Virus record (IMG/VR): IMGVR_UViG_3300027892_000107 | Coordinates: 1-30,541 of that record | Length of the DNA stretch: 30,541 nt | Origin: a virus | Taxonomy: Duplodnaviria; Caudoviricetes | Reading direction: 5' to 3' (one strand) | In this document: piece after piece, positions 1-26,292 of the stretch | Layout: the number at the start of each line of letters is the position of its first letter | Position numbering within the stretch: position 1 is the first letter of the stretch | Made by a program: the position numbers and the translations under genes | Notes under the pieces: generated by a model | What the model saw: the letters and a program-made list of their open reading frames with translations, nothing else | What the model was told of the DNA's origin: nothing | Databases searched by the model: none

Positions 1-10
1 ACCCAAATTC

Positions 11-50
11 GACACGCCAAAGCCCCACCGGGTTTCCGGTGGGGTGAGGC
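11..50 (-). repeat. Intergenic hairpin repeat R1
   Basis: mRNA GCC-UCA-CCCC-ACCGG-AAAC-CCGGU-GGGG-CUUU-GGC-GUGUC; nearly identical to R12. Confidence 0.9.
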
Positions 51-55
51 TCTAT

Positions 56-292
56 TTAGCCAGGAATTTTGGCTACGTCATTCATATAATGAGACTTAGT
101 TCTTTCTTGAAGCTCCTGCTCCCAGAAAGACTGAAGCTCACGAAGCTTTTCGCCACGCTTCTTTATGACTTCGCTGTGGTAGTTTTCACCACCCCAACCA
201 GCAACACATTGGTGCCACTCTTCAGTATTTGTCCGTCGAGCGGTGCCGATGGCGTAAATGGTTTCCTGGATTTGTTGGTAAGTCGCGTTCAT
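56..292 (-). CDS. Hypothetical protein (78 aa, MNATYQQ...)
   Basis: GGAGA RBS before ATG at 292; fills the gap between R2 and R1. Confidence 0.75.
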   Translation of the reverse strand: MNATYQQIQETIYAIGTARRTNTEEWHQCVAGWGGENYHSEVIKKRGEKLRELQSFWEQELQERTKSHYMNDVAKIPG

Positions 293-308
293 GTAGTTCT
301 CCATTTTG

Positions 309-349
309 GACACGCTGAAACCCCCAGCCGTTTGGCCAGGGGTTGCAGG
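309..349 (-). repeat. Hairpin repeat R2
   Basis: CUG-CAA-CCCC-UGGCC-AAAC-GGCUG-GGGG-UUU-CAG-CGUGUC; two G-U pairs. Confidence 0.85.
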
Positions 350-352
350 TAG

Positions 353-739
353 TTACGCCCTAAATTGCTGGAATCTAAGGGGAGGCTTAACACCGAGGCG
401 GGACATCTTCCGGTCGAGTGCGAACCCGATGCCGGTTTCATAACAATAACTTTCCCAGCCGTACAAGGCGTCACAGCCCATAGCATCGAAGTCCCACATC
501 AAAGCGGTGATTACATCAATACTATGTTCACGCATCAGGCCGCGAATACGATTCTTCACGGTCTTGATGGCGCAAACTTTATCGCGACGATCATCTTCAA
601 TCACCACAGCGAGTTGACGAACAAGACGATCATATTCAGCGTCAAATTCTTCTTGAGTCTCGAAGTGAACGTTGCGCGGCCGAAAGCCGTAGACGTCCTT
701 GTGGAGGTCGGAGTAGGTATCGCAAATAAAAACAGTCAT
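353..739 (-). CDS. Hypothetical phage protein (128 aa, YSDLHKDVYGFRPR motif)
   Basis: GGAGA RBS, ATG at 739; N-terminal motif recalled from T4-like phage hypotheticals, not verified. Confidence 0.8.
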   Translation of the reverse strand: MTVFICDTYSDLHKDVYGFRPRNVHFETQEEFDAEYDRLVRQLAVVIEDDRRDKVCAIKTVKNRIRGLMREHSIDVITALMWDFDAMGCDALYGWESYCYETGIGFALDRKMSRLGVKPPLRFQQFRA

Positions 740-755
740 GTGATTTTTCTCCATT

Positions 756-799
756 CACAATGCCTTGACCCCAGCGGTTTTCCGCTGGGGTAAGTAGGC
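756..799 (-). repeat. Hairpin repeat R3
   Basis: GCCU-ACUU-ACCCC-AGCGG-AAAA-CCGCU-GGGGU-CA-AGGC; core identical to R6. Confidence 0.9.
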
Positions 800-1218
800 T
801 ATCGTTTAGCCGCGAGCATCTTCGCCGGGGATTGGCCGGCAAGAACTTGCGAGAGCGAGAACTTAAAACGTTTCCCGTCGCTTCGCGTCCCGATGAACGG
901 GTACTTGTGCGAACGAGCCTTATAGTCAATCAGAGTGATCGTACCGTTCATCGGCGAGACGAAGGTATCGGCCATCTTGTTGTCTTTAAGAACTTTCATC
1001 AGGGTCGGCGTTTGACCCAGCTGAACCGCTTCGGCAGACAACTTGCCTTTGACATGCGCATCGATACGCGTATGCATCGTGGAGCCGTCGGGAGCGAAGC
1101 GAATGTTCCCGAGCGTCAACATCAGACCGGACTCATCGCCGAATTTCGCGAGCACAAGGTTGAGCTCTTTGCGAAGGACAGCGAGAGTGGCTTTGTTGAA
1201 AGTGTTATAGGTCGTCAT
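799..1218 (-). CDS. Hypothetical protein (139 aa, MTTYNTF...)
   Basis: GGAGA RBS, ATG at 1218; stop abuts R3. Confidence 0.8.
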   Translation of the reverse strand: MTTYNTFNKATLAVLRKELNLVLAKFGDESGLMLTLGNIRFAPDGSTMHTRIDAHVKGKLSAEAVQLGQTPTLMKVLKDNKMADTFVSPMNGTITLIDYKARSHKYPFIGTRSDGKRFKFSLSQVLAGQSPAKMLAAKR

Positions 1219-1240
1219 GTGTAGGTTTCTCCATGTTACA

Positions 1241-1278
1241 CACTGCTGAAACCCCAGCACTTTGGCTGGGGTTAGCAG
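1241..1278 (-). repeat. Hairpin repeat R4
   Basis: CUGCU-AA-CCCC-AGCC-AAAG-UGCU-GGGG-UU-UC-AGCAG. Confidence 0.85.
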
Positions 1279-1279
1279 T

Positions 1280-1474
1280 TTAAACGTTTTCTTTGACCAG
1301 CTTCACGTTCCCGCCGTTAGGCAGGGGAACGGAACGCATGTCCCAAAAGAAGTCAACGTTGTCAGCGGACACCTGGCGAATCTCTTGCAGAGTTTCGCAC
1401 AGCTGCGACCAGGTCTTATCCAGAACCTGAACAGAACGATCAGGGTTCATGATGCGGATGCGAGTAACGGTCAT
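1280..1474 (-). CDS. Hypothetical protein (64 aa, MTVTRIR...)
   Basis: GGAGA RBS, ATG at 1474; stop abuts R4. Confidence 0.75.
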   Translation of the reverse strand: MTVTRIRIMNPDRSVQVLDKTWSQLCETLQEIRQVSADNVDFFWDMRSVPLPNGGNVKLVKENV

Positions 1475-1490
1475 GTCATTTTCTCCATTA

Positions 1491-1530
1491 GACACGCCAA
1501 AACCCCTGCCACTTTGGGCAGGGGTAAAGG
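1491..1530 (-). repeat. Hairpin repeat R5
   Basis: CCCC-UGCCC-AAAG-UGGCA-GGGG core, identical to R13. Confidence 0.9.
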
Positions 1531-1533
1531 ACA

Positions 1534-2367
1534 TCAACGCCGCTTCCGCGACGTCTTCTGTTCATCCATGAAGCTCACGAGGTCAAAGATTTCCGCTTCA
1601 ACGCCGCTGACGGCGTCTTCCACTTCGTCCATAACTTCGTCAATGCCCTCTTCGCGGTCGAAACCGGCGAAGACGTACGAGCCGGCAAAGGCAAGCACGA
1701 TGGAAAGAACAGTGATCAACGTGGCGTAGAGAGCCGCGTCGGTCAGGTTAAACGGGAGTTCCGCAGTGGGAGCACCCGCAGCGACCGTATCTGTCGCTTT
1801 CTTCAAGTCATCACGAGCCGTAACCAGCAGCCCACGGATCTCATCACCGCGTTTGTTCATGGCGTCAAGAGTATCGCCGCCACGATCACCATCGATTTTG
1901 TTCTTGTAATAACCAAGCGAGCTAAGCCGAAGCTGAGCTTTCTTGATCGTCGCCTCATCTTCAGCAACCATCAGCAGGAGTTCTGCATCAAGGTCAGTGA
2001 TCTGCTTTTCAGCAGCCGCTTTAGAGCCGACAGCGGTTTTATAGCTTGAATCACGGTCAGAGAAGGTTTGATCCGCCTTCTCAACTTCGTTCATCAAAGC
2101 AAGCTCGCCTGAGTGACGGTCAAGACCGCCAGCCACAAGGAGCAGGACGCCGAGGACCGCAGCAGCGACCCAACGGCGGTGGCGGATTTCGCTTTCAACC
2201 GCGACGCCGAGGGCTACGCCCGCAGCGGCAGTAAAAGGTCCAATCCAACCAGCGAACGGGATTTGAATTTGACTTTCAAACCCCGCATAGGCAAGCACGC
2301 CGGAGATGGCGGCCAGTCCAGTACCACAGGCAATCAGGATGACGCCAGCGATTTTGCGGAAAATCAT
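1534..2367 (-). CDS. Membrane protein with coiled coil and putative peptidoglycan-binding (PG_binding_1-like) segment
   Basis: GAGGAGA RBS, ATG at 2367; three N-terminal and one C-terminal hydrophobic helices; AQLRLSSLGYYKNKIDGDRGGDTLDAM fits Q..L..LGY....DG..G..T..A; acidic tail. Confidence 0.7.
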   Translation of the reverse strand: MIFRKIAGVILIACGTGLAAISGVLAYAGFESQIQIPFAGWIGPFTAAAGVALGVAVESEIRHRRWVAAAVLGVLLLVAGGLDRHSGELALMNEVEKADQTFSDRDSSYKTAVGSKAAAEKQITDLDAELLLMVAEDEATIKKAQLRLSSLGYYKNKIDGDRGGDTLDAMNKRGDEIRGLLVTARDDLKKATDTVAAGAPTAELPFNLTDAALYATLITVLSIVLAFAGSYVFAGFDREEGIDEVMDEVEDAVSGVEAEIFDLVSFMDEQKTSRKRR

Positions 2368-2384
2368 TAAATCTCCTCTTTTCT

Positions 2385-2428
2385 CACTACGCCTTGACCC
2401 CAGCGGTTTTCCGCTGGGGTAAGTAGGC
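2385..2428 (-). repeat. Hairpin repeat R6
   Basis: Same core and outer stem as R3. Confidence 0.9.
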
Positions 2429-2623
2429 TTAGGCAGCGAGCTTCGGTTCAACCATCGTGTGGTTGACGCCGAGTTCGGTCAGGTAGGCCGAAGAACGTTC
2501 CGCGTCCTCACGACGGAGATAGGTCAGCTTAAAGGTCTGACCGAACTCCGCCGAACCTTTGCACGTATTCACGTGCTTGATGACGAAAAGCGGAAGCTTG
2601 GCTTTTTTGACTGCGCGTTTCAT
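2429..2623 (-). CDS. Hypothetical protein (64 aa, MKRAVKK...)
   Basis: GAGAG RBS, ATG at 2623; stop abuts R6. Confidence 0.75.
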   Translation of the reverse strand: MKRAVKKAKLPLFVIKHVNTCKGSAEFGQTFKLTYLRREDAERSSAYLTELGVNHTMVEPKLAA

Positions 2624-2655
2624 ATTTAATCTCTCTTTAAGCCAGCGGTTTGCTG

Positions 2656-2696
2656 GACACGCCAAAACCCCCAGCACTTTGGCTGGGGGTAAGGGC
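2656..2696 (-). repeat. Hairpin repeat R7
   Basis: GCCC-UUA-CCCC-CAGCC-AAAG-UGCUG-GGGG-UUUU-GGC-GUGUC. Confidence 0.9.
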
Positions 2697-2698
2697 AA

Positions 2699-2950
2699 CT
2701 ACTTCGCTTTGCGGCGAGTAGAGCGTTTCACGGGGGCAGCTTTCTTCGCTGCCGCCGCTTTGATGTCGGTGACCACTTCGTCCTTCGTGACCGTGAGAGT
2801 TACCTCAAGGTCTTCGTTGAACGCTTCGATCTCGTCAGCGCGACGAGTGAAGTAGGTGTCAAGCAGGGTGTCGGTCACGATCACCGCCGCTTTGATCCGT
2901 TTGAAACGGGCGACGAGGTCACGAGCACGAGCAACACGAGCATTAGCCAT
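2699..2950 (-). CDS. Hypothetical basic protein (83 aa) with Ala/Lys-rich tail
   Basis: First gene of operon A; tail AAAAKKAAPVKRSTRRKAK; start uncertain (2950 vs 2965/2968). Confidence 0.7.
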   Translation of the reverse strand: MANARVARARDLVARFKRIKAAVIVTDTLLDTYFTRRADEIEAFNEDLEVTLTVTKDEVVTDIKAAAAKKAAPVKRSTRRKAK

Positions 2951-2986
2951 TTTGGTATTTTCCATCACCTGGCGTTAAGTGCCAGG

Positions 2987-3025
2987 CGTGCTGAAACCCC
3001 ACTAGGTTTCTAGCGGGGTAACAGC
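2987..3025 (-). repeat. Hairpin repeat R8 (end of leader A)
   Basis: GCUG-UUA-CCCC-GCUAG-AAAC-CUAGU-GGGG-UUU-CAGC; no gene upstream of it. Confidence 0.85.
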
Positions 3026-3070
3026 TGGAGATGTAGTAATGCGAACCCTTAAACCCGGAGGCGGGGTCGC

Positions 3071-3096
3071 GTCAATCTCTTCACAATGTCAAACAG
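3071..3096 (-). promoter_or_regulatory. boxA-like antitermination motif, leader A
   Basis: CUGUUUGACAUUGUGAAGAGAUUGAC, 25/26 identical to 6062-6087; resembles rRNA-leader boxA. Confidence 0.6.
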
Positions 3097-3179
3097 TGGC
3101 GGCTCAACCTAGTCCGGGTCCGTAATTCTGGCCCGTGGCGTCTTAAGTCCTCTGCGCCGGTTCACCTTCAAGTCTCATC

Positions 3180-3207
3180 AGTATACTCTCACTGGCAGAA
3201 AAGGCAA
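3180..3207 (-). promoter_or_regulatory. sigma70-type early promoter, operon A
   Basis: TTGCCT-N16-TATACT with AT-rich upstream DNA. Confidence 0.75.
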
Positions 3208-3296
3208 TACTCCTTTAAAAGGGCTTTGAAACTTTATTATTAAACTTTCGTAATGTTCATATCGTTAAACGATAAAAAGTTAATAAAAGGTTTCTT

Positions 3297-3379
3297 CTGT
3301 GGAGTCCCCACAGGAGCGATAGTTTTTCGGGTCCCCGGTGTAGGGTCAAAGAACTGATTCGCTCCAGTGAGCTCCACAG
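3297..3379 (-). other. Long imperfect RNA hairpin at the 3' end of operon B
   Basis: CUGUGGAG/CUCCACAG, CUCAC/GUGGG, GGAGCGA/UCGCUCC, AGUUCUUUG/CGAAAAACU. Confidence 0.7.
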
Positions 3380-3418
3380 ACACACCAAAACCCCAGCACG
3401 TTTGTGCCGGGGTAAAGG
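3379..3418 (-). repeat. Hairpin repeat R9
   Basis: CCCC-GGCAC-AAAC-GUGCU-GGGG-UUUU-GGUGUGUC. Confidence 0.9.
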
Positions 3419-3419
3419 T

Positions 3420-3632
3420 TTAGGATTTTCCTAGTCGGCCGTACAGAAGCGCCAAAACGAGGCTGTACGCTTCTAGCTCATTCCACTCATTGTAGAGTTC
3501 CGGCCAATTCAGATCTTGGTTGCCATAGAGGGCCCAGATACGTTGGCCGAACCGTAGATGTTCGGGATTTTTCCGCCACATCGTGAGCTCGTGAGCTAGA
3601 CCAGGGATCGTAAGATTTTCAGAAAGAAGCAT
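3420..3632 (-). CDS. Hypothetical protein (70 aa, MLLSENL...)
   Basis: AGGA RBS, ATG at 3632 just after the upstream stop; stop abuts R9. Confidence 0.7.
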   Translation of the reverse strand: MLLSENLTIPGLAHELTMWRKNPEHLRFGQRIWALYGNQDLNWPELYNEWNELEAYSLVLALLYGRLGKS

Positions 3633-3642
3633 TTGTTGTTTC

Positions 3643-3855
3643 CTAGACTTCAAAAGGACGGGTAAGTCGATCGATCTGCCGATCGTTATAGTTGCCGTCA
3701 TGCGTCCAGCGACGGAAAGCGAAGCAGTCCGTGCCGTTTTTATCACAGCGAGCCGCGAACTGGCAGGTATCGCAGGGATTAGGCCGAAGCGTTTCTTCCT
3801 GGATATATTCCCAGACTTTGGCGCGTTCGCCAGCGTTGTCAACTACGTAATCCAT
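3643..3855 (-). CDS. Small Cys-rich protein (70 aa)
   Basis: AAGGAGA RBS; PCDTCQFAARCDKNGTDC four-Cys cluster. Confidence 0.75.
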   Translation of the reverse strand: MDYVVDNAGERAKVWEYIQEETLRPNPCDTCQFAARCDKNGTDCFAFRRWTHDGNYNDRQIDRLTRPFEV

Positions 3856-3871
3856 ATTAGTTCTCCTTACA

Positions 3872-3912
3872 TACGCCTTGACCCCAACGCTTTTGCGCTG
3901 GGGTAAGTAGGC
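3872..3912 (-). repeat. Hairpin repeat R10
   Basis: GCCU-ACUU-ACCCC-AGCGC-AAAA-GCGUU-GGGGU-CA-AGGC. Confidence 0.9.
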
Positions 3913-4226
3913 TACTTAAAGACGCCGTGAGCGAGTTTCCGGTTAGGAACACTGCCATCTACAACACCGGTCTTGAACACAACCTTGCCGATCACTTTGA
4001 AGTAACCGAGGTGTTTCCAGGACTGATCATGCTTCGCGTCGTGGAACGTACCAACATTCCACTTTTCGCCGAGATCACCGAACGACGTCCAGACGCGAAA
4101 CTTATTCCCGTCTTGGACGATGTAGGCGACTTGACCAGGGTCAAAGTACTCAGCACTCTCAGGTTGGCATGGGTTCATGTAGGCGCCAGTAGGAAGAATA
4201 GCAGTTCTGTTTCGCCAGTTGTTCAT
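3912..4226 (-). CDS. Hypothetical protein (104 aa)
   Basis: GAGGA RBS; bounded by R11 and R10. Confidence 0.8.
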   Translation of the reverse strand: MNNWRNRTAILPTGAYMNPCQPESAEYFDPGQVAYIVQDGNKFRVWTSFGDLGEKWNVGTFHDAKHDQSWKHLGYFKVIGKVVFKTGVVDGSVPNRKLAHGVFK

Positions 4227-4245
4227 GTTGTTTTTCCTCTTTCAA

Positions 4246-4285
4246 CTACGCCTTGTCCCCAGCACTTTTGTGCCGGGGTAAGGTG
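4246..4285 (-). repeat. Hairpin repeat R11
   Basis: CCUU-A-CCCC-GGCAC-AAAA-GUGCU-GGGG-AC-AAGG-CGUAG. Confidence 0.9.
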
Positions 4286-4286
4286 T

Positions 4287-4556
4287 TTAGCGCCAACCGT
4301 TCTGGTAGAGCTCATGCTCAGTTTGGCGGTCGCTTTCGTCGAGCTCTTCCTTGAGCTCTTCGCCTTCTTTGAAAAGGCTGTCCCACTCTTCATCAGTGAT
4401 GCCGGTTTTGATGAACTCACGCTGCCCAGCCGTCAGGCCGAAGAAAGCGTCTTGCAGAAGTTCACCTACCGCATACCGATCAAACATTTCCTGGGTCGCA
4501 GGAATGTCGAGCGTGCGCTCAATACCGCTGATCATAGATTTACGGGTGATAAGCAT
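4287..4556 (-). CDS. Hypothetical phage protein (89 aa, QREFIKTGITDEEWD motif)
   Basis: AAGGAGA RBS, ATG at 4556; acidic C-terminus. Confidence 0.8.
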   Translation of the reverse strand: MLITRKSMISGIERTLDIPATQEMFDRYAVGELLQDAFFGLTAGQREFIKTGITDEEWDSLFKEGEELKEELDESDRQTEHELYQNGWR

Positions 4557-4573
4557 TTTTTGTCTCCTTGTTG

Positions 4574-4613
4574 GACACGCCAAAGCCCCACCGGGTTTCC
4601 GGTGGGGTAAGGC
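4574..4613 (-). repeat. Hairpin repeat R12
   Basis: One mismatch to R1 over 40 nt. Confidence 0.9.
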
Positions 4614-4853
4614 TCAGGGCGAAGTATAGTTCTCAGAGAACAGCGACTGGAAGCTGCTGATATCCAGAGCTTTGAGAAGCTCGAAGTCAGCCCGGTCAAT
4701 TCTCATCTTACGCCCAGCGGCGTACTCAGCGCGATGCCGAACATCGTAGTGATGAAGAACGACACGCTTCATTTCAGAGCGCGTGACCGCACCATGAAGA
4801 TTGATGCCTGCGTTTTCGACGAGCACCCGAACTGTTTCAGTTGAAGCAGTCAT
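4614..4853 (-). CDS. Hypothetical protein (79 aa, MTASTET...)
   Basis: AAGGAGA RBS, ATG at 4853; stop abuts R12. Confidence 0.75.
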   Translation of the reverse strand: MTASTETVRVLVENAGINLHGAVTRSEMKRVVLHHYDVRHRAEYAAGRKMRIDRADFELLKALDISSFQSLFSENYTSP

Positions 4854-4869
4854 ATTTGTCTCCTTGTTG

Positions 4870-4908
4870 GACACGCTGAAACCCCTGCCACTTTGGGCAG
4901 GGGTAAAG
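4870..4908 (-). repeat. Hairpin repeat R13
   Basis: Core identical to R5, tail like R2. Confidence 0.9.
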
Positions 4909-4909
4909 A

Positions 4910-5329
4910 TCAGCTATAACGTCGCTCACGTTCGCGGCGTTCATAACGTAGTTCTTCGAGTTCTTCTTGCTTTTCACGGTAGGCTTCGAGTTCTTCAAGT
5001 GTCATCTTTGACATCTTCATGCGCTCGAAGCAGGCGTTAACTCGGCCTTCGTCATCCGGCTGGGTCAGGTAGAACACATAAACGCCGAGCTCCTTGCGGT
5101 ACTCTTTGTCGATATATTCAAACCCACCATAATACTGGAGGACGCGGTCGTCACTCGCCTTACAGGCGATGAACTCTTCGTTTTGGGTATCAACCCAAAG
5201 ACCGCCGTAAGTGGCCCGTTCGTCAAGGCCGAGAGTGCTCAGATCGTGAACATGCTCGCATTGAAGAACGAGGTCTTCAGCGCCAGATTCAATAACGTCC
5301 ATGAGGTCGTTAAGCGATTCGATGGTCAT
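4910..5329 (-). CDS. Hypothetical acidic protein (139 aa)
   Basis: GGAGA RBS; bounded by repeats; charged helical C-terminus. Confidence 0.8.
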   Translation of the reverse strand: MTIESLNDLMDVIESGAEDLVLQCEHVHDLSTLGLDERATYGGLWVDTQNEEFIACKASDDRVLQYYGGFEYIDKEYRKELGVYVFYLTQPDDEGRVNACFERMKMSKMTLEELEAYREKQEELEELRYERRERERRYS

Positions 5330-5350
5330 GTGATTTTTTCTCCATTCTCA

Positions 5351-5389
5351 CTACGATGTGACCCCAGCGGGTTTCCGCCGGGGTACATC
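5351..5389 (-). repeat. Hairpin repeat R14
   Basis: GAUGU-ACCCC-GGCGG-AAAC-CCGCU-GGGGU-C-ACAUC; outer stem fully compensated. Confidence 0.85.
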
Positions 5390-5390
5390 A

Positions 5391-5627
5391 TCAGTAGTAG
5401 TCATCGCCGTCAAAGACGATGGCCAGCAGGTAGTACTCAGCGCCAGCCAGTCGTTTGAAGGACTTGGCGTTTGCCGTGTCGAACTCGCCGCTTTTAGGAT
5501 CGCATGGGGTCGCAACCCACAGGCCATCATCAAGCGTCGCCACTCCAACCGTCAAACCCGTTTTGCGCAGGTCATAGCGGTAACCATCATCGATGGAAAC
5601 GGGGACGAGATAATTTTCAAAGCTCAT
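5391..5627 (-). CDS. Hypothetical protein (78 aa)
   Basis: GGAGA RBS; bounded by repeats. Confidence 0.8.
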   Translation of the reverse strand: MSFENYLVPVSIDDGYRYDLRKTGLTVGVATLDDGLWVATPCDPKSGEFDTANAKSFKRLAGAEYYLLAIVFDGDDYY

Positions 5628-5646
5628 GTGATTTTTTCTCCATTCT

Positions 5647-5688
5647 CACAATGCTGAAAGCCCAGCGCTATTTGCGCCAGGCGATCAG
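5647..5688 (-). repeat. Divergent hairpin repeat R15
   Basis: CUGA-UC-GCCUGGCGC-AAAUA-GCGCUGGGC-UU-UCAG-CAUUGUG. Confidence 0.75.
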
Positions 5689-5841
5689 TCAGCAGTCGTA
5701 GTCAGGGTATTGCGTCAGGTAACCGAAGTGGTACCCGCGAAGAACATCCCCAATTTGGTCTTCTTTCAAACCGAGGGAGCGAATCAACACTTCGATGTTT
5801 TGAGTCGCGATAATATACCCAACTTGAAACCACGTAATCAT
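5689..5841 (-). CDS. Small hypothetical protein (50 aa, MITWFQVGYIIATQ...YPDYDC), not in the ORF track
   Basis: AAGGAGA RBS before ATG at 5841; TGA abuts R15 like the other genes. Confidence 0.7.
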   Translation of the reverse strand: MITWFQVGYIIATQNIEVLIRSLGLKEDQIGDVLRGYHFGYLTQYPDYDC

Positions 5842-5851
5842 GAGTTTTCTC

Positions 5852-5964
5852 CTTGCTCACATTAAGATACACCAAACCTTGTACCAGGCTGATCTGACCA
5901 ATCACTTCGAACTTATTTGGGGTCAGACAAATAAGCTCTAGTGGTGTATCCAAAAATGAGCAAG
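5852..5964 (-). ncRNA. Putative structured cis-regulatory RNA with pseudoknot in leader B
   Basis: Nested stems CUUGCUCAU/GUGAGCAAG, GGAUACACCA/UGGUGUAUCU, GAGCUUAUUUG/CAAAUAAGUUC; loop UCUGACC complementary to downstream GGUCAGA. Confidence 0.55.
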
Positions 5965-6061
5965 TCGTGTTTTGAAGCGTTACCGCACGATGGTAACTTT
6001 GTCGCTGGCAGCTTGGGTCAGAGCCCTGTGCGCTTCATGGGCTACCTAGAGCGGTAGGCCA

Positions 6062-6087
6062 GTCAATCTCTTTACAATGTCAAACAG
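6062..6087 (-). promoter_or_regulatory. boxA-like antitermination motif, leader B
   Basis: CUGUUUGACAUUGUAAAGAGAUUGAC, second copy of 3071-3096. Confidence 0.6.
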
Positions 6088-6223
6088 CGGCTTGGTGAGC
6101 TAGTCATTTCACATACAAGGCCGAAAAGTTTCCCACGTTTTTCACGCTCGTTACTGGCGTGGGACTTTTTCGGACCCAGGTAAAACCGGCCATTAAGTGT
6201 CTAGGCCGCTCCCAAGTTCAATC

Positions 6224-6251
6224 AGTATACTCCCACCAGCCGGGTTGTAAA
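6224..6251 (-). promoter_or_regulatory. sigma70-type early promoter, operon B
   Basis: TTTACA-N16-TATACT. Confidence 0.75.
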
Positions 6252-6335
6252 GTTAAACTTTCGTAATGTTTGACTGAAATCATTAGGTTTTTTCCTGTTA
6301 ACCGAACTTTTTCGTTAATTTTTGTTAATAATAAC

Positions 6336-6377
6336 GAAAAAACCGAACGGTAACCCTTTCAAAGTTACTATTCGGTT
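6336..6377 (-). terminator. Intrinsic terminator
   Basis: AACCGAAUAGUAAC/GUUACCGUUCGGUU stem followed by a U run, just after the 6383 stop. Confidence 0.7.
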
Positions 6378-6382
6378 CAAGG

Positions 6383-6577
6383 TTACTTTTTCGTGGTGGT
6401 TCGCCAGTCGTTTGAAAAATAGTCTAAGACCATTTCAATTGCCGCGAGATATTCCTTCTTGTTCTCGATATGGCTTGTTCGTTTTTTAAGAATCGCTCTT
6501 TCATGTAGCAATTCACTTATAATGATTTCGTGAGCTTTCCACTCATCAATCTCAATGGTCGAAACAATCCTTGACAT
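6383..6577 (-). CDS. Hypothetical protein (64 aa)
   Basis: AGGAG RBS; overlaps the end of the upstream gene; followed by a terminator. Confidence 0.7.
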   Translation of the reverse strand: MSRIVSTIEIDEWKAHEIIISELLHERAILKKRTSHIENKKEYLAAIEMVLDYFSNDWRTTTKK

Positions 6578-7370
6578 TTAGCTCTCCTGCAAAATCGACA
6601 TACTTATCAGCGGAGAACTGTTTGTTCTCTGCTTTGTGGTGGTATCCGTAGGGATTGGTTAGGATCCTTGTGTTACCGATCACATAATCAAGCGTATGGT
6701 GCATGTGTCCGTGGAACCACGCGATGATTTGCGGGTGATCGCTGATGTACTCAAATAGCTCCGTAGCATAGGCCGAGTTCAGAGGATCACCTTTGAACGA
6801 TTCATGAACCGAAAGAAAGCTTGGTGCCATGTGGGTGATCACCACGACTTTCTTGTGACTCATAACACACCTCTCGATGTATCTCATACTATCATGATAC
6901 CACAGAAGAGTGTCTTCTGGAGTGTAACGAGAAGTATGATAATCGTTCATTCCGTTACGAGCTTGTTCCATGATCAGAGGATTGGCGTTACCGAAATTCG
7001 TCCAAAGAGTAGCCCCAACAAACCGGGTATCCCCAAGGTCGATTGAGTCGTTTTCCATGAACCGGATGTTGCGGTACTTAGCTACCTCTTTCCGGATAAC
7101 ATCAAGATGCGATCCGTGTGCATCATATTCTTTATTACGCCAACGATAAAGTTCGTGGTTGCCGGCGATGATCAGAACGAATGGAAACTGTTCGCTGATG
7201 TGGGCCAGAAACTTGTGATATAGCTTCCGGCGCTTTGGGTTCTGGTCGATAAAGTCGTACGCCAGAAAGATGTCTCCGGCGAGAACCAGGACATCGGCGT
7301 TGTTTTTGTTTAATGGAAGAATCGGGTTCCCGAACTCTATATGAAGGTCGGACATGTAGGCAATACGCAT
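6552..7370 (-). CDS. Calcineurin-like metallophosphoesterase
   Basis: Motifs SDLH, LAGD, GNHE, THMAP, HGHMH. Confidence 0.92.
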   Translation of the reverse strand: MRIAYMSDLHIEFGNPILPLNKNNADVLVLAGDIFLAYDFIDQNPKRRKLYHKFLAHISEQFPFVLIIAGNHELYRWRNKEYDAHGSHLDVIRKEVAKYRNIRFMENDSIDLGDTRFVGATLWTNFGNANPLIMEQARNGMNDYHTSRYTPEDTLLWYHDSMRYIERCVMSHKKVVVITHMAPSFLSVHESFKGDPLNSAYATELFEYISDHPQIIAWFHGHMHHTLDYVIGNTRILTNPYGYHHKAENKQFSADKYVDFAGELNVKDCFDH

Positions 7371-7394
7371 GATGTGTTCCTTTTATCAACAGCC

Positions 7395-7423
7395 AGTATA
7401 CTCCTTTTATCCAGGGAAGTCAA
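7395..7423 (-). promoter_or_regulatory. sigma70-type promoter
   Basis: TTGACT-N17-TATACT. Confidence 0.8.
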
Positions 7424-7435
7424 TCAAAATCTGAA

Positions 7436-7505
7436 TTTTATCGTTTACGATAAAAACAGGACTTGATGCTCCCGAATAGGATACATTTTATCGTTTACGA
7501 TAAAA
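7436..7505. repeat. Two identical 20-bp palindromes TTTTATCGTTTACGATAAAA, 50 bp apart
   Basis: Copies at 7436-7455 and 7486-7505, upstream of the -35 box. Confidence 0.85.
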
Positions 7506-24753: not shown

Positions 24754-26292
24754 CTACGAGTAAACAAACGCAGCGCGATTATTCCAAATCTTATCAAAAT
24801 TAGATGTACCGGACGCCCAGAGAATATTTGTATCGTCTCCTGCTACCTCAACACGCTTAATTCTCCAGACAGCCGCAGCTGCAGATGATCCTGGATCGGC
24901 TTCACCAATATAGGTGTAGGATCCAGAAACATCTATAAGTTTATTGTATTGCATCTCAACACTCGTTGTAATTTCCCCGATTATCTCATCAATGTTTGTT
25001 GCAACAAATTTTTTCTTAGCAGGATCAAAAATCAGGACACTTCTATCTGCAACAGTATTTATTCGTTTGAATTCCACATCATCATTATCCATCAATTTAG
25101 TAGAACCGCCGCCGTGCGATCCTGGTCCAGGCATCCTTGAAGATAATTTATATAATTCTTTACTCATCAACATCTTATAGCTACTGAGATCTTGGTTAAT
25201 TCTTAAGCTTAATTGCGTTAAAAGTGCGTCAATGCTTGGTGTGTCACCTTTCTCACCACGCTCGCCTGGTGGACCCATATCACCCTTTTCACCTTTTTCA
25301 CCGCGATCGCCTTTGTCGCCCTTATGTCCTTGTGGTCCACCAAAATCACCTTTTTCGCCGCGATCACCTTTGTCGCCCTTATCGCCTTTTGATCCTTTGG
25401 GGCCTTCTTTGCCTTGTTTACCTTCTTTGCCTTCAGGTCCACGATCTCCCTTGTCACCCTTCAGGCCTTTAGGACCATCTTTACCTTTTCTGCCTTCTTT
25501 ACCTTCTTTGCCCTGTTTACCTTCAGAACCACGATCACCTTTATCACCCTTTGGGCCTTTAGAACCTTCTAAACCATCTCTGCCATTTGCGCCTGGTAAG
25601 CCATCTTTACCATCTACGCCGTCTTTACCGTTTTCTGGTTTTTCTAACAGAACCCGGACATCATTTTTGAAACGAAGATACAAATCTCCAACATCATCTT
25701 TGAAGATGGCATCGGCGTTCTCATTTAGTGATGTGATATCTTCGGTGTATCTAAGTCCATAATCAATTAATTCGTCGAGTTTAGATTTTCTATCAGAAAC
25801 ATTCTTTTCTGTCTCAACAATAGTTTCTTCAGTTTTTGTGTACTTGACAAAATCACCAGAACTAAAATGTAACGGTACATCAAGTTCTTTATTATAATAG
25901 AGCCCACCTTCAGTTGGTCTCTCAACATGTATAGAATCTACGGCGCGCAATGAGACGATACAGTTGTTGTACTGCTCGAACATCTTGGTATCATTTGGAT
26001 AATAACCAGGTGGTACCTTCAGTAGATACCTTTTCCCGTCTGATGCAGGAACACCTTCTTGTTTTAGATTCCACTCTCTTTCGAATTGGTTGTCAAACTT
26101 TTCATCAGACACACTATTCTCATTAACGTATAATTCTTTACCCTCGGATACAACAACAGAACCATAATGCAGGCAATATTCCACACCGTCAAAAACCACA
26201 GTTTTCTTGTCTACTAAAAATGAATTTTCTGTAGATTGATTCCTCAACTGGACATCAGCGTCTGTGAGGATTTTAGAAACTATGAATCGCAC
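24754..26292 (-). CDS. Collagen-like triple-helix protein (fibre/whisker-like)
   Basis: 43 G-X-Y triplets (32 + 11, one Gly insertion) at ~25240-25630; GTG start with GGAG RBS; CATAAATA at 26321-26328. Confidence 0.85.
   Translation of the reverse strand: MRFIVSKILTDADVQLRNQSTENSFLVDKKTVVFDGVEYCLHYGSVVVSEGKELYVNENSVSDEKFDNQFEREWNLKQEGVPASDGKRYLLKVPPGYYPNDTKMFEQYNNCIVSLRAVDSIHVERPTEGGLYYNKELDVPLHFSSGDFVKYTKTEETIVETEKNVSDRKSKLDELIDYGLRYTEDITSLNENADAIFKDDVGDLYLRFKNDVRVLLEKPENGKDGVDGKDGLPGANGRDGLEGSKGPKGDKGDRGSEGKQGKEGKEGRKGKDGPKGLKGDKGDRGPEGKEGKQGKEGPKGSKGDKGDKGDRGEKGDFGGPQGHKGDKGDRGEKGEKGDMGPPGERGEKGDTPSIDALLTQLSLRINQDLSSYKMLMSKELYKLSSRMPGPGSHGGGSTKLMDNDDVEFKRINTVADRSVLIFDPAKKKFVATNIDEIIGEITTSVEMQYNKLIDVSGSYTYIGEADPGSSAAAAVWRIKRVEVAGDDTNILWASGTSNFDKIWNNRAAFVYS

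Follow-up and report, generated by a model that had tools for sequence, protein, structure and literature searches.

Hairpin-separated gene arrays behind boxA leaders in T4-like phages, candidate sites of RNA processing

Hairpins that are cut by RNase III between genes are known from the early operon of phage T7, and the early sites of SPO1 and SP82 are further parallels. In T7, the R1.1-type sites place a hairpin with an internal loop ahead of each ribosome-binding site of a polycistronic transcript, and single-strand cuts leave a protective 3' hairpin (PMC1540722, PMC8708148; here and below, statements taken from a paper cover its accessible parts). The promoter early stem-loop (PeSL) cassettes of T4-type phages are repeated units of a stem-loop and a Shine-Dalgarno sequence in a variable block of small genes, and they hold a sigma70-like promoter and a terminator (PMC2839356, PMC4122927). 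A third device, boxA, serves antitermination in ribosomal RNA operons (rrn) with the factors NusB-S10, NusA, NusG, SuhB and S4; boxA alone suffices for formation of the antitermination complex in E. coli, and it also precedes suhB and CRISPR arrays (PMC13753749). It is likewise part of the nut sites of lambda (PMC11893012). We report here an array of small genes separated by a repeated hairpin element in the virus record IMGVR_UViG_3300027892_000107. The window that we analyzed is the entire 30.5-kb record (30,541 nucleotides (nt); about 17% complete), and its T4-type genes are regA, clamp loader, DNA polymerase, uvsX, helicase and RNA ligase genes, plus 13 tRNAs. An original prediction had described 15 copies of the hairpin and had proposed that a nuclease or RNA-binding protein reads their fold and cuts the transcript into single-gene mRNAs.

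The array occupies the first 5.9 kb of the window on the minus strand and differs from the remainder in GC-content (50-55% against 39-46%). It appears to function like the RNase III-punctuated early region of T7 and to shuffle like PeSLs, thereby joining three known devices. Each component has been described before (the RNase III sites of T7, PeSL cassettes and rrn boxA), but we found no description of their combination, of the element, or of boxA in T4-like phages in the literature searched, a collection without most subscription papers. Our preferred reading, to which we give an even chance, is a Nus-antiterminated transcript that starts from boxA leaders and is nicked at the hairpins by the RNase III of the host; the Nus loading and the cutting are the steps that we infer.

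The hairpin element and its distribution

All 15 predicted elements (R1 to R15, from the left edge of the window) are present on the minus strand. The predicted geometry CCCC-N5-AAAN-N5-GGGG is exact in 13 of them, as compared with a mean of 0.26 and a maximum of 2 in shuffled sequences; the exceptions are R4, which has a shorter stem, and R15, which has a GCC/GGC base. A covariance model, which had been suggested as a check, recovered all 15 elements at E ≤ 0.008. The other matches of the model in the window were weaker (E ≥ 0.039) and correspond to the same hairpins on the opposite strand, except for two (E = 1.5 and 3.2). The elements had been placed between a stop codon and the next ribosome-binding site, and this holds: the stem begins 6-11 nt past a stop codon in 14 of 15 elements, and a start codon follows 26-46 nt past the stem in 13 of 15 (the exceptions being R9 and the edge-cut R1). 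R8 is the exception among the stop codons; the absence of a gene upstream of it had been noticed before, and the reason is that R8 follows the leader of a second promoter.

We found the same phage (A) again in three contigs (L014, L292 and L296; 99.7-100% identity) by pattern and protein scans. The element was also detected in three further T4-like phages: B (L016, G001), C (L021, G002) and D (L017-L019, L293, G003), where L293 is a 141-kb relative; L020 is a close relative of phage C. The three partial relatives are 23-37% complete (17-37% for the four records including the window), and the records of B, C and D, as far as they go, show no copy of the element outside the array. In total, 51 elements were tabulated (16 in A, 9 in B, 15 in C, 10 in D and one in L020), which represent 29 distinct stem-loops. 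The sixteenth element of phage A lies past the left edge of the window, where the array had been expected to continue, in the near-identical contig L296 (L296:11420). Past R1, this contig carries a tRNA-like fold, an open reading frame (ORF), the sixteenth element, two more ORFs, a terminator (UUCG loop, six U) and a new promoter.

The pairing of the stems confirms that selection acts on the transcribed RNA strand, as had been claimed. Across the 29 distinct stem-loops, the mRNA strand presents 234 Watson-Crick pairs, 20 G-U pairs, no A-C pair and 4 C-U mismatches. Among the inner five pairs, 102 of 105 cells pair, against 59 when the arms are swapped. When 38 copies were aligned, 96.6% of the cells were paired (34-53% in slid controls) and both sides had changed in 7 of the 10 pairs; the covariation score of these copies was reached by 0 of 500 shuffles, a count that is not a probability, given that the copies are related. 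The outer stem had also been reported to covary. This is real, with 37 of 51 elements paired against 22.6 in flank swaps (maximum 32), but it is not universal.

The layout 3' of the stem is highly regular: the stem is followed by an A-U pair (41/51 elements), four bases (N4) and a triplet (RKC) that begins with a purine in 51/51 elements (GGC in 28, AGC in 9 and GTC in 8). The triplet pairs with the 5' flank in 37/51 elements but at a variable distance, and the internal loop is therefore fixed on the 3' side only. The loop itself is AAAN in 46/51 elements. Three further copies in phage B (L016) present other loops and stem lengths with the same base and tail (model E = 3 × 10−7, 1 × 10−6 and 0.84). 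The invariant part of the element is the base of the stem and the 3' tail, not the loop.

Outside these phages, we found no match to the element in 83 other loci (915 kb) or in two alphaproteobacterial genomes that were partly scored, nor was it seen in at least 80 helicase loci (52-68% identity), many of which extend only a short way downstream. The top-matching runs are freshwater metagenomes. The best matches of the helicase among cultured phages reach about 60% identity, so the cultured-phage collection searched holds no close isolate; no cultured phage in it matched the array at the DNA level, and searches with the element or the leader gave chance-level matches only. In phages Atu_ph07, Phosso and DLP_6, hairpin-pattern matches were at the level of the controls, and boxA of the alphaproteobacterial type was absent as well. 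Seven of the 17 distinct metagenome loci (L287-L291, L295 and L297) were set aside as lacking the element, and single pattern matches in L007, L029, L041 and L046 were rejected, as these sequences do not fold as elements. In Rfam searches only tRNAs were called; neither the element nor the leader belongs to a family at the gathering threshold, the best matches in the array had E-values of 0.76-8.5, and a likeness to the ylbH leader was rejected (18 bits against a threshold of 50).

Promoters, boxA leaders and termination

The original prediction had reported neither promoters nor long U tracts. None occurs inside the elements, but the array itself has two sigma70-type promoters that had been missed, one at the head of each half: P1 (6251-6224; TTTACA-16-TATACT) and P2 (3207-3180; TTGCCT-16-TATACT). 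Only five phage-type promoters were found in the window, none of them within an element, and similar promoter boxes precede the first leader in the relatives. The predicted difference from PeSLs thus stands: PeSLs carry a promoter and a terminator, whereas the elements have no promoter and no U tract. The element array is not a PeSL, even though its repeats likewise sit where relatives differ. The words boxA, RNase and antitermination do not occur in the accessible part of PMC2839356.

Both promoter leaders share a 25-nt motif within divergent flanks (boxA 1 and the conserved bases after it, 6062-6086; boxA 2, 3071-3095; both on the minus strand), which resembles the E. coli boxA consensus UGCUCUUUAACA (PMC13753749). 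A 20-mer of the leader matches at least 120 loci of GTDB, and Alphaproteobacteria account for 78 of the 80 titles listed. The 5' motif of 23S rRNA lies 168-373 nt downstream of the 20-mer in 72 of the 80 fully flanked loci, and in 91 of the 120 loci overall, where the remaining 40 have less flanking sequence. Rfam identified 23S rRNA in 15 of 20 boxA loci that were selected for diversity. The leader motif is a copy of boxA that matches the signal of the alphaproteobacterial 16S-23S spacer. With one ambiguous base, the boxA 12-mer occurs exactly twice in each of the four phage records (186 kb in total), and every copy stands behind a promoter motif at the head of one array half, about 60-140 nt past the promoter and within the untranslated leader. 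A looser scan of viral contigs for boxA yielded 37 loci, none of which has such an array outside the clade.

The boxA copy points to an alphaproteobacterial host and would indicate the host class of an uncultured phage; homologues of the ORF at 353-739 in Sinorhizobium and Agrobacterium phages point to the same host. As in rrn operons, the same sequence stands ahead of a putatively processed array, one that holds tRNAs in the relatives. Unlike in rrn operons, the genes behind it are mostly protein-coding and belong to a T4-like phage, where Nus binding is putative. No complement of the bases after boxA, as in an rRNA-like stalk, was found, and no element-like hairpin was present in the 120 host spacer loci. 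The pL leader of lambda, which has an RNase III site, likewise combines a promoter, boxA, a hairpin and a small basic gene. In contrast to lambda nut, however, neither a boxB beside boxA nor an N protein was recognizable, and the hairpin is repeated after every gene. The folds upstream of boxA differ between the leaders with no conserved boxB hairpin identified, and the first element lies at least 60 nt past boxA. Leader 1 (5845-6216, minus strand) is untranslated, about 370 nt long and structured; it is conserved well beyond boxA in L020 and L021 and partly in L016, and could represent an independent RNA.

Separately from the arrays, the alphaproteobacterial-type boxA motif was seen without a hairpin array in the viral contigs L175, L184, L187 and L190/L194, where it is either real or due to chance. 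Genomic boxA matches without rRNA within 600 nt were found in L048, L060, L062, L096 and L122, that of L062 being near a cobalamin riboswitch at the end of the contig.

The presence of boxA implies something to read through, and the GC-rich stems stand directly past stop codons. The hairpins could then be weak terminators or pause sites, equivalent to the stem-loop half of a PeSL, with expression graded by boxA-dependent read-through. The U content after the stems bears on this: 19/51 elements have 3-4 U, but no U run exceeds four in any of the 51 and 30/51 have 0-1 U. A terminator scan called R9 alone of the 15 elements, and a conventional U6 terminator of another design closes the operon (the one in L296). 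Weak termination also fails to account for the RNA ends, described below, that lie 5' of the gene that follows. We consider this explanation quite unlikely.

Candidate RNase III cutting at the hairpins

The mechanism that we propose is a two-promoter operon in which the boxA after each promoter would load the Nus antitermination complex of the host. Host RNase III would then nick each hairpin on its 3' side and release single-gene mRNAs and tRNAs. The hairpin would stay on the upstream product and protect its 3' end, and the downstream product would begin about 20-40 nt ahead of its start codon. E. coli RNase III requires an 11-bp helix, yields a 28-nt product and selects its site independently of the loop, and internal loops restrict it to one strand, leaving a protective 3' hairpin (PMC1540722). 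By arithmetic from these two lengths, the 3' cut falls 13 nt from the tetraloop, which here predicts a cut at the N4/RKC boundary (2394/2393 in R6). Using the pair matrix of E. coli sites cut in vivo (PMC6212723, Table S4), the cut before the purine triplet was the best of five registers across 44 elements, with a score of −10.5; real sites are expected to score −10.5, and the threaded control scored −11.2. Two features of R1.1-type sites are found here, namely the internal loop and lower stem at the predicted cut (37/51) and a site that does not depend on the loop (the three L016 copies).

We compared the ends of RNA and DNA contigs over the array. This comparison uses contigs only, the eight longest per run, and the stretches covered differed (1-7500 and 1-6300). 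The RNA set comprises the best 24 of 47 contigs from three runs, of which 22 were used and two outside the array were dropped; the DNA set comprises the best 24 of 37 contigs from three low-depth runs, of which 21 were used and three in the leader were dropped. The 5'-side end lies at most 45 nt past a stem in 12 of the 22 RNA contigs (2.7 expected) but in only 2 of the 21 DNA contigs (2.6 expected; P = 0.003; Fisher test). RNA contigs from three studies end at 2977-2979, where DNA contigs continue. This contrast speaks against an artefact of sequencing that DNA would share, and we take the contig ends as a weak hint of processing 3' of the hairpins. The idea that the transcript is cut into single-gene mRNAs gains weak support from these ends, and 5 of the 22 RNA contigs continue across an element.

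Several observations weigh against the proposed cutting. The five RNA contigs just mentioned cross R5, R6, R7, R14 or R15, and some RNA, or carried-over DNA, does cross elements. Bridging of an element was seen in 5/22 RNA contigs (14.4 expected) and in 10/21 DNA contigs (11.9 expected), a contrast that is not significant (P = 0.12-0.33; Fisher test). Contigs do not give true RNA ends, and stops of reverse transcription at a GC-rich stem could give the same end polarity. The margin of the matrix score is only 0.7 log, it relies on an E. coli matrix, and the scored copies lack independence. Furthermore, the helix consists of 9 bp and one A-U pair followed mostly by mismatches, which falls short of the 11 bp of the minimal E. 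coli substrate, and the outer stem is missing in 14/51 elements. Finally, the best register places C-G at position 2 of the proximal box, whereas the register with A-U at this position scores like the controls. C-G at this position lowers the reactivity of E. coli RNase III to about 0.06 (PMC1540722) and occurs in 10 of 85 E. coli in-vivo sites (PMC6212723, Table S4). The C-G-rich stem base thus breaks the proximal-box rule of E. coli, in contrast to the A-U/U-A found at position 2 of R1.1-type sites. This is a rule of the E. coli enzyme, however, and the RNase III of Rhodobacter differs in cutting substrates that the E. coli enzyme cannot; NusA and NusB also help to form the RNase III site of 16S rRNA (PMC8708148). 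The array further differs from the T7 sites by its 16 near-repeats that mark gene exchange, its boxA leaders and its T4-like phage context, and cutting is only proposed here.

It is also possible that the hairpins are not cut, which we judge somewhat unlikely. They would act as 3' barriers and translational insulators, with RNase E cutting the A/U-rich flanks and exonucleases stopping at the stem, as they do at REP-type (repetitive extragenic palindromic) stabilizers. Such barriers predict the same pattern of contig ends, and they fit both the close spacing of stems behind stop codons and the poor match to the proximal box. On the other hand, an uncut barrier has no need for the fixed N4-RKC-GT layout, for the A-U pair or for an outer stem that covaries across an internal loop.

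In the original prediction, a nuclease or RNA-binding protein reads the RNA fold; given the three L016 copies, such a reader probably does not need the AAAN loop. Because these copies have other loops, a loop-blind enzyme such as RNase III is favored over a Cas6-like or boxB-like reader. The reader could still be a phage-encoded nuclease or RNA-binding protein, Cas6-like or boxB-like with an N-like partner, an explanation that we think unlikely. The confinement of the element to one clade and the prevalence of AAAN loops speak for it, as does a candidate, the basic 83-amino-acid (aa) protein of the ORF at 2699-2950, which all four phages encode and whose N-terminal arginines are invariant. Yet three copies carry unrelated loops, and, unlike nut sites, the hairpins are separated from boxA by 60-400 nt or more and are repeated per gene. 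The 83-aa candidate itself had no match in Pfam, PHROG or Atlas, only unnamed relatives, and was modelled as an uninformative single long helix. No RNase III family gene of the phages' own was found in the three partial relatives, which also counts against a phage-encoded reader to the extent that their completeness allows.

The RNA 5'-side ends that follow the stems, and the fixed 4-nt spacer that ends in a purine in 51/51 elements, would also be expected if each element were an N4-type hairpin promoter with RNA starting at the purine four bases past the stem. The template strand would then hold 20 A-C mismatches and no G-T pair, and the array is already headed by normal sigma70 promoters with boxA. 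We regard hairpin promoters as hardly credible.

If host RNase III does nick a Nus-antiterminated transcript at the hairpins, a T4-like phage would express ordinary genes by rRNA antitermination and rRNA-type processing, whereas boxA use is otherwise described in the literature searched for rRNA, suhB, CRISPR arrays and lambda-type nut sites. The array would then be a promoter-free alternative to PeSLs for gene shuffling, and would supply any gene inserted between two hairpins with a stable mRNA of its own. The approximately 50 natural covarying copies would define substrate rules for alphaproteobacterial RNase III, seemingly unlike those of E. coli, and would provide a 45-nt insulator part testable in Caulobacter, Rhodobacter or Sinorhizobium. 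A broader and more tentative possibility is that the whole, presumably early, operon uses the rRNA pathway of the host: with the Nus complex loaded at boxA, RNA polymerase would transcribe without coupling to ribosomes and under protection from Rho, RNase III would cut co-transcriptionally at a standard hairpin, and mRNAs, tRNAs and non-coding RNAs would be interchangeable plug-in cassettes between the hairpins.

Gene order and gene content of the arrays

The gene families shared by the four phages are ordered differently, and gene units are reordered at the elements. The ends of DNA homology blocks fall within element zones in 24 of 32 cases (these zones make up 22% of the array), and in a mixed-strain DNA run (X11) the joints are at elements. 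Element zones overlap gene ends, which inflates the count of block ends, and one gene has different downstream neighbors in different phages at a junction that lacks an element; both points weigh against exchange at the hairpins. Exact stretches of 39, 35 and 30 nt are common to elements and are probably long enough for ordinary recombination. Since the hairpin and the ribosome-binding region are repeated, recombination likely swaps whole gene units, and shuffling would be a by-product of the array.

The reordering could also suggest that the elements are recombination sites of single-stranded DNA, as in attC-type or REP/HUH-type cassettes, and the G-T pairs of the stems would form in DNA too. 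However, attC folds the other strand, whereas the coding strand folds here. No tyrosine integrase (PF00589) was found in the four partial records, 17-37% complete, and the exact repeats together with the uvsX gene of the window permit ordinary recombination. DNA recombination sites are in our view highly improbable.

We list the array genes in the order of transcription; all are on the minus strand, and each element is given with its stem-loop. All elements were recovered by the covariance model and, apart from R4 and R15, by the exact pattern. Leader 1 is followed by a 50-aa ORF (5689-5841; 96% identity in L021), R15 (5648-5692; stem-loop 5660-5682), a 78-aa ORF (5391-5627), R14 (5350-5393; 5362-5383), a 139-aa ORF (4910-5329), R13 (4870-4913; 4882-4903), a 79-aa ORF (4614-4853) and R12 (4574-4617; 4586-4607). 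Next come an 89-aa ORF (4287-4556) that matches phrog_20898, with homologues in phages of mixed hosts, R11 (4245-4288; 4257-4278), a 104-aa ORF (3912-4226) and R10 (3870-3913; 3882-3903). A 70-aa Cys-rich ORF (3643-3855), present in all four phages, is followed without an intervening element by a second 70-aa ORF of uncertain start (3420-3632) and by R9 (3379-3422; 3391-3412). Where a gene would be expected after R9, there is a long imperfect hairpin instead (3255-3385; folding z-score −5.2). This hairpin contains a second boxA-like 10-mer at about 3345-3354, and one RNA contig spans the hairpin and P2.

In the second half, R8 (2985-3028; 2997-3018) is the first element past boxA 2, and it precedes the 83-aa ORF described above, R7 (2656-2699; 2668-2689), a 64-aa ORF (2429-2623) and R6 (2386-2429; 2398-2419). 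The following ORF (1534-2367) encodes a 277-aa protein with hydrophobic ends that is found in all four phages; it had a sub-threshold peptidoglycan-binding match and no match in cultured phages, and is possibly an envelope or exclusion protein. Then come R5 (1491-1534; 1503-1524), a 64-aa ORF (1280-1474), the short-stemmed R4 (1240-1281; 1252-1271), a 139-aa ORF (799-1218), R3 (757-800; 769-790), the 128-aa ORF at 353-739 (phrog_21968), R2 (309-352; 321-342), a 78-aa ORF (56-292) and R1 (11-54; 23-44). Clear PHROG matches were obtained for two of the 15 array ORFs, and both families are of unknown function. In Agrobacterium phage Atu_ph07, a repeated promoter and not a hairpin precedes the homologue of the ORF at 353-739; there (L302:5520-6410), a sigma70 promoter is present in a separate copy for each of three consecutive small genes, one of them this homologue.

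The arrays of the relatives also contain tRNA genes, located between elements or behind a leader: tRNA-Asp in B (L016:16877-16952) and tRNA-Met, tRNA-Leu and tRNA-Glu in D (L017:8640-8716 and L017:12027-12194). In L293, the first ORF past boxA 1 (167 aa) sits before tRNA-Met, and its N-terminus resembles a GIY-YIG homing endonuclease. In phage A, the sequence right after R1 (L296:11092-11176) folds as a cloverleaf with a terminal CCA, an anticodon loop for Tyr (GTA) and a T loop of 8 nt (folding z-score −1.3); neither ARAGORN nor Rfam called it, and it is possibly a degenerate or specialized tRNA. Behind the last element of B and C lies a conserved stretch without coding potential, enclosed by a flanking stem of 12-18 bp (L016:17146-17265 and L021:17609-17725); by eye this stretch can form a pseudoknot, and it has no Rfam match. 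Elsewhere in the window, the 13 tRNA genes (16.6-29.1 kb) have no boxA 12-mer among them and accompany the RNA ligase and a polynucleotide-kinase-like gene, and a collagen-repeat, tail-fibre-like gene lies at 24754-26292.

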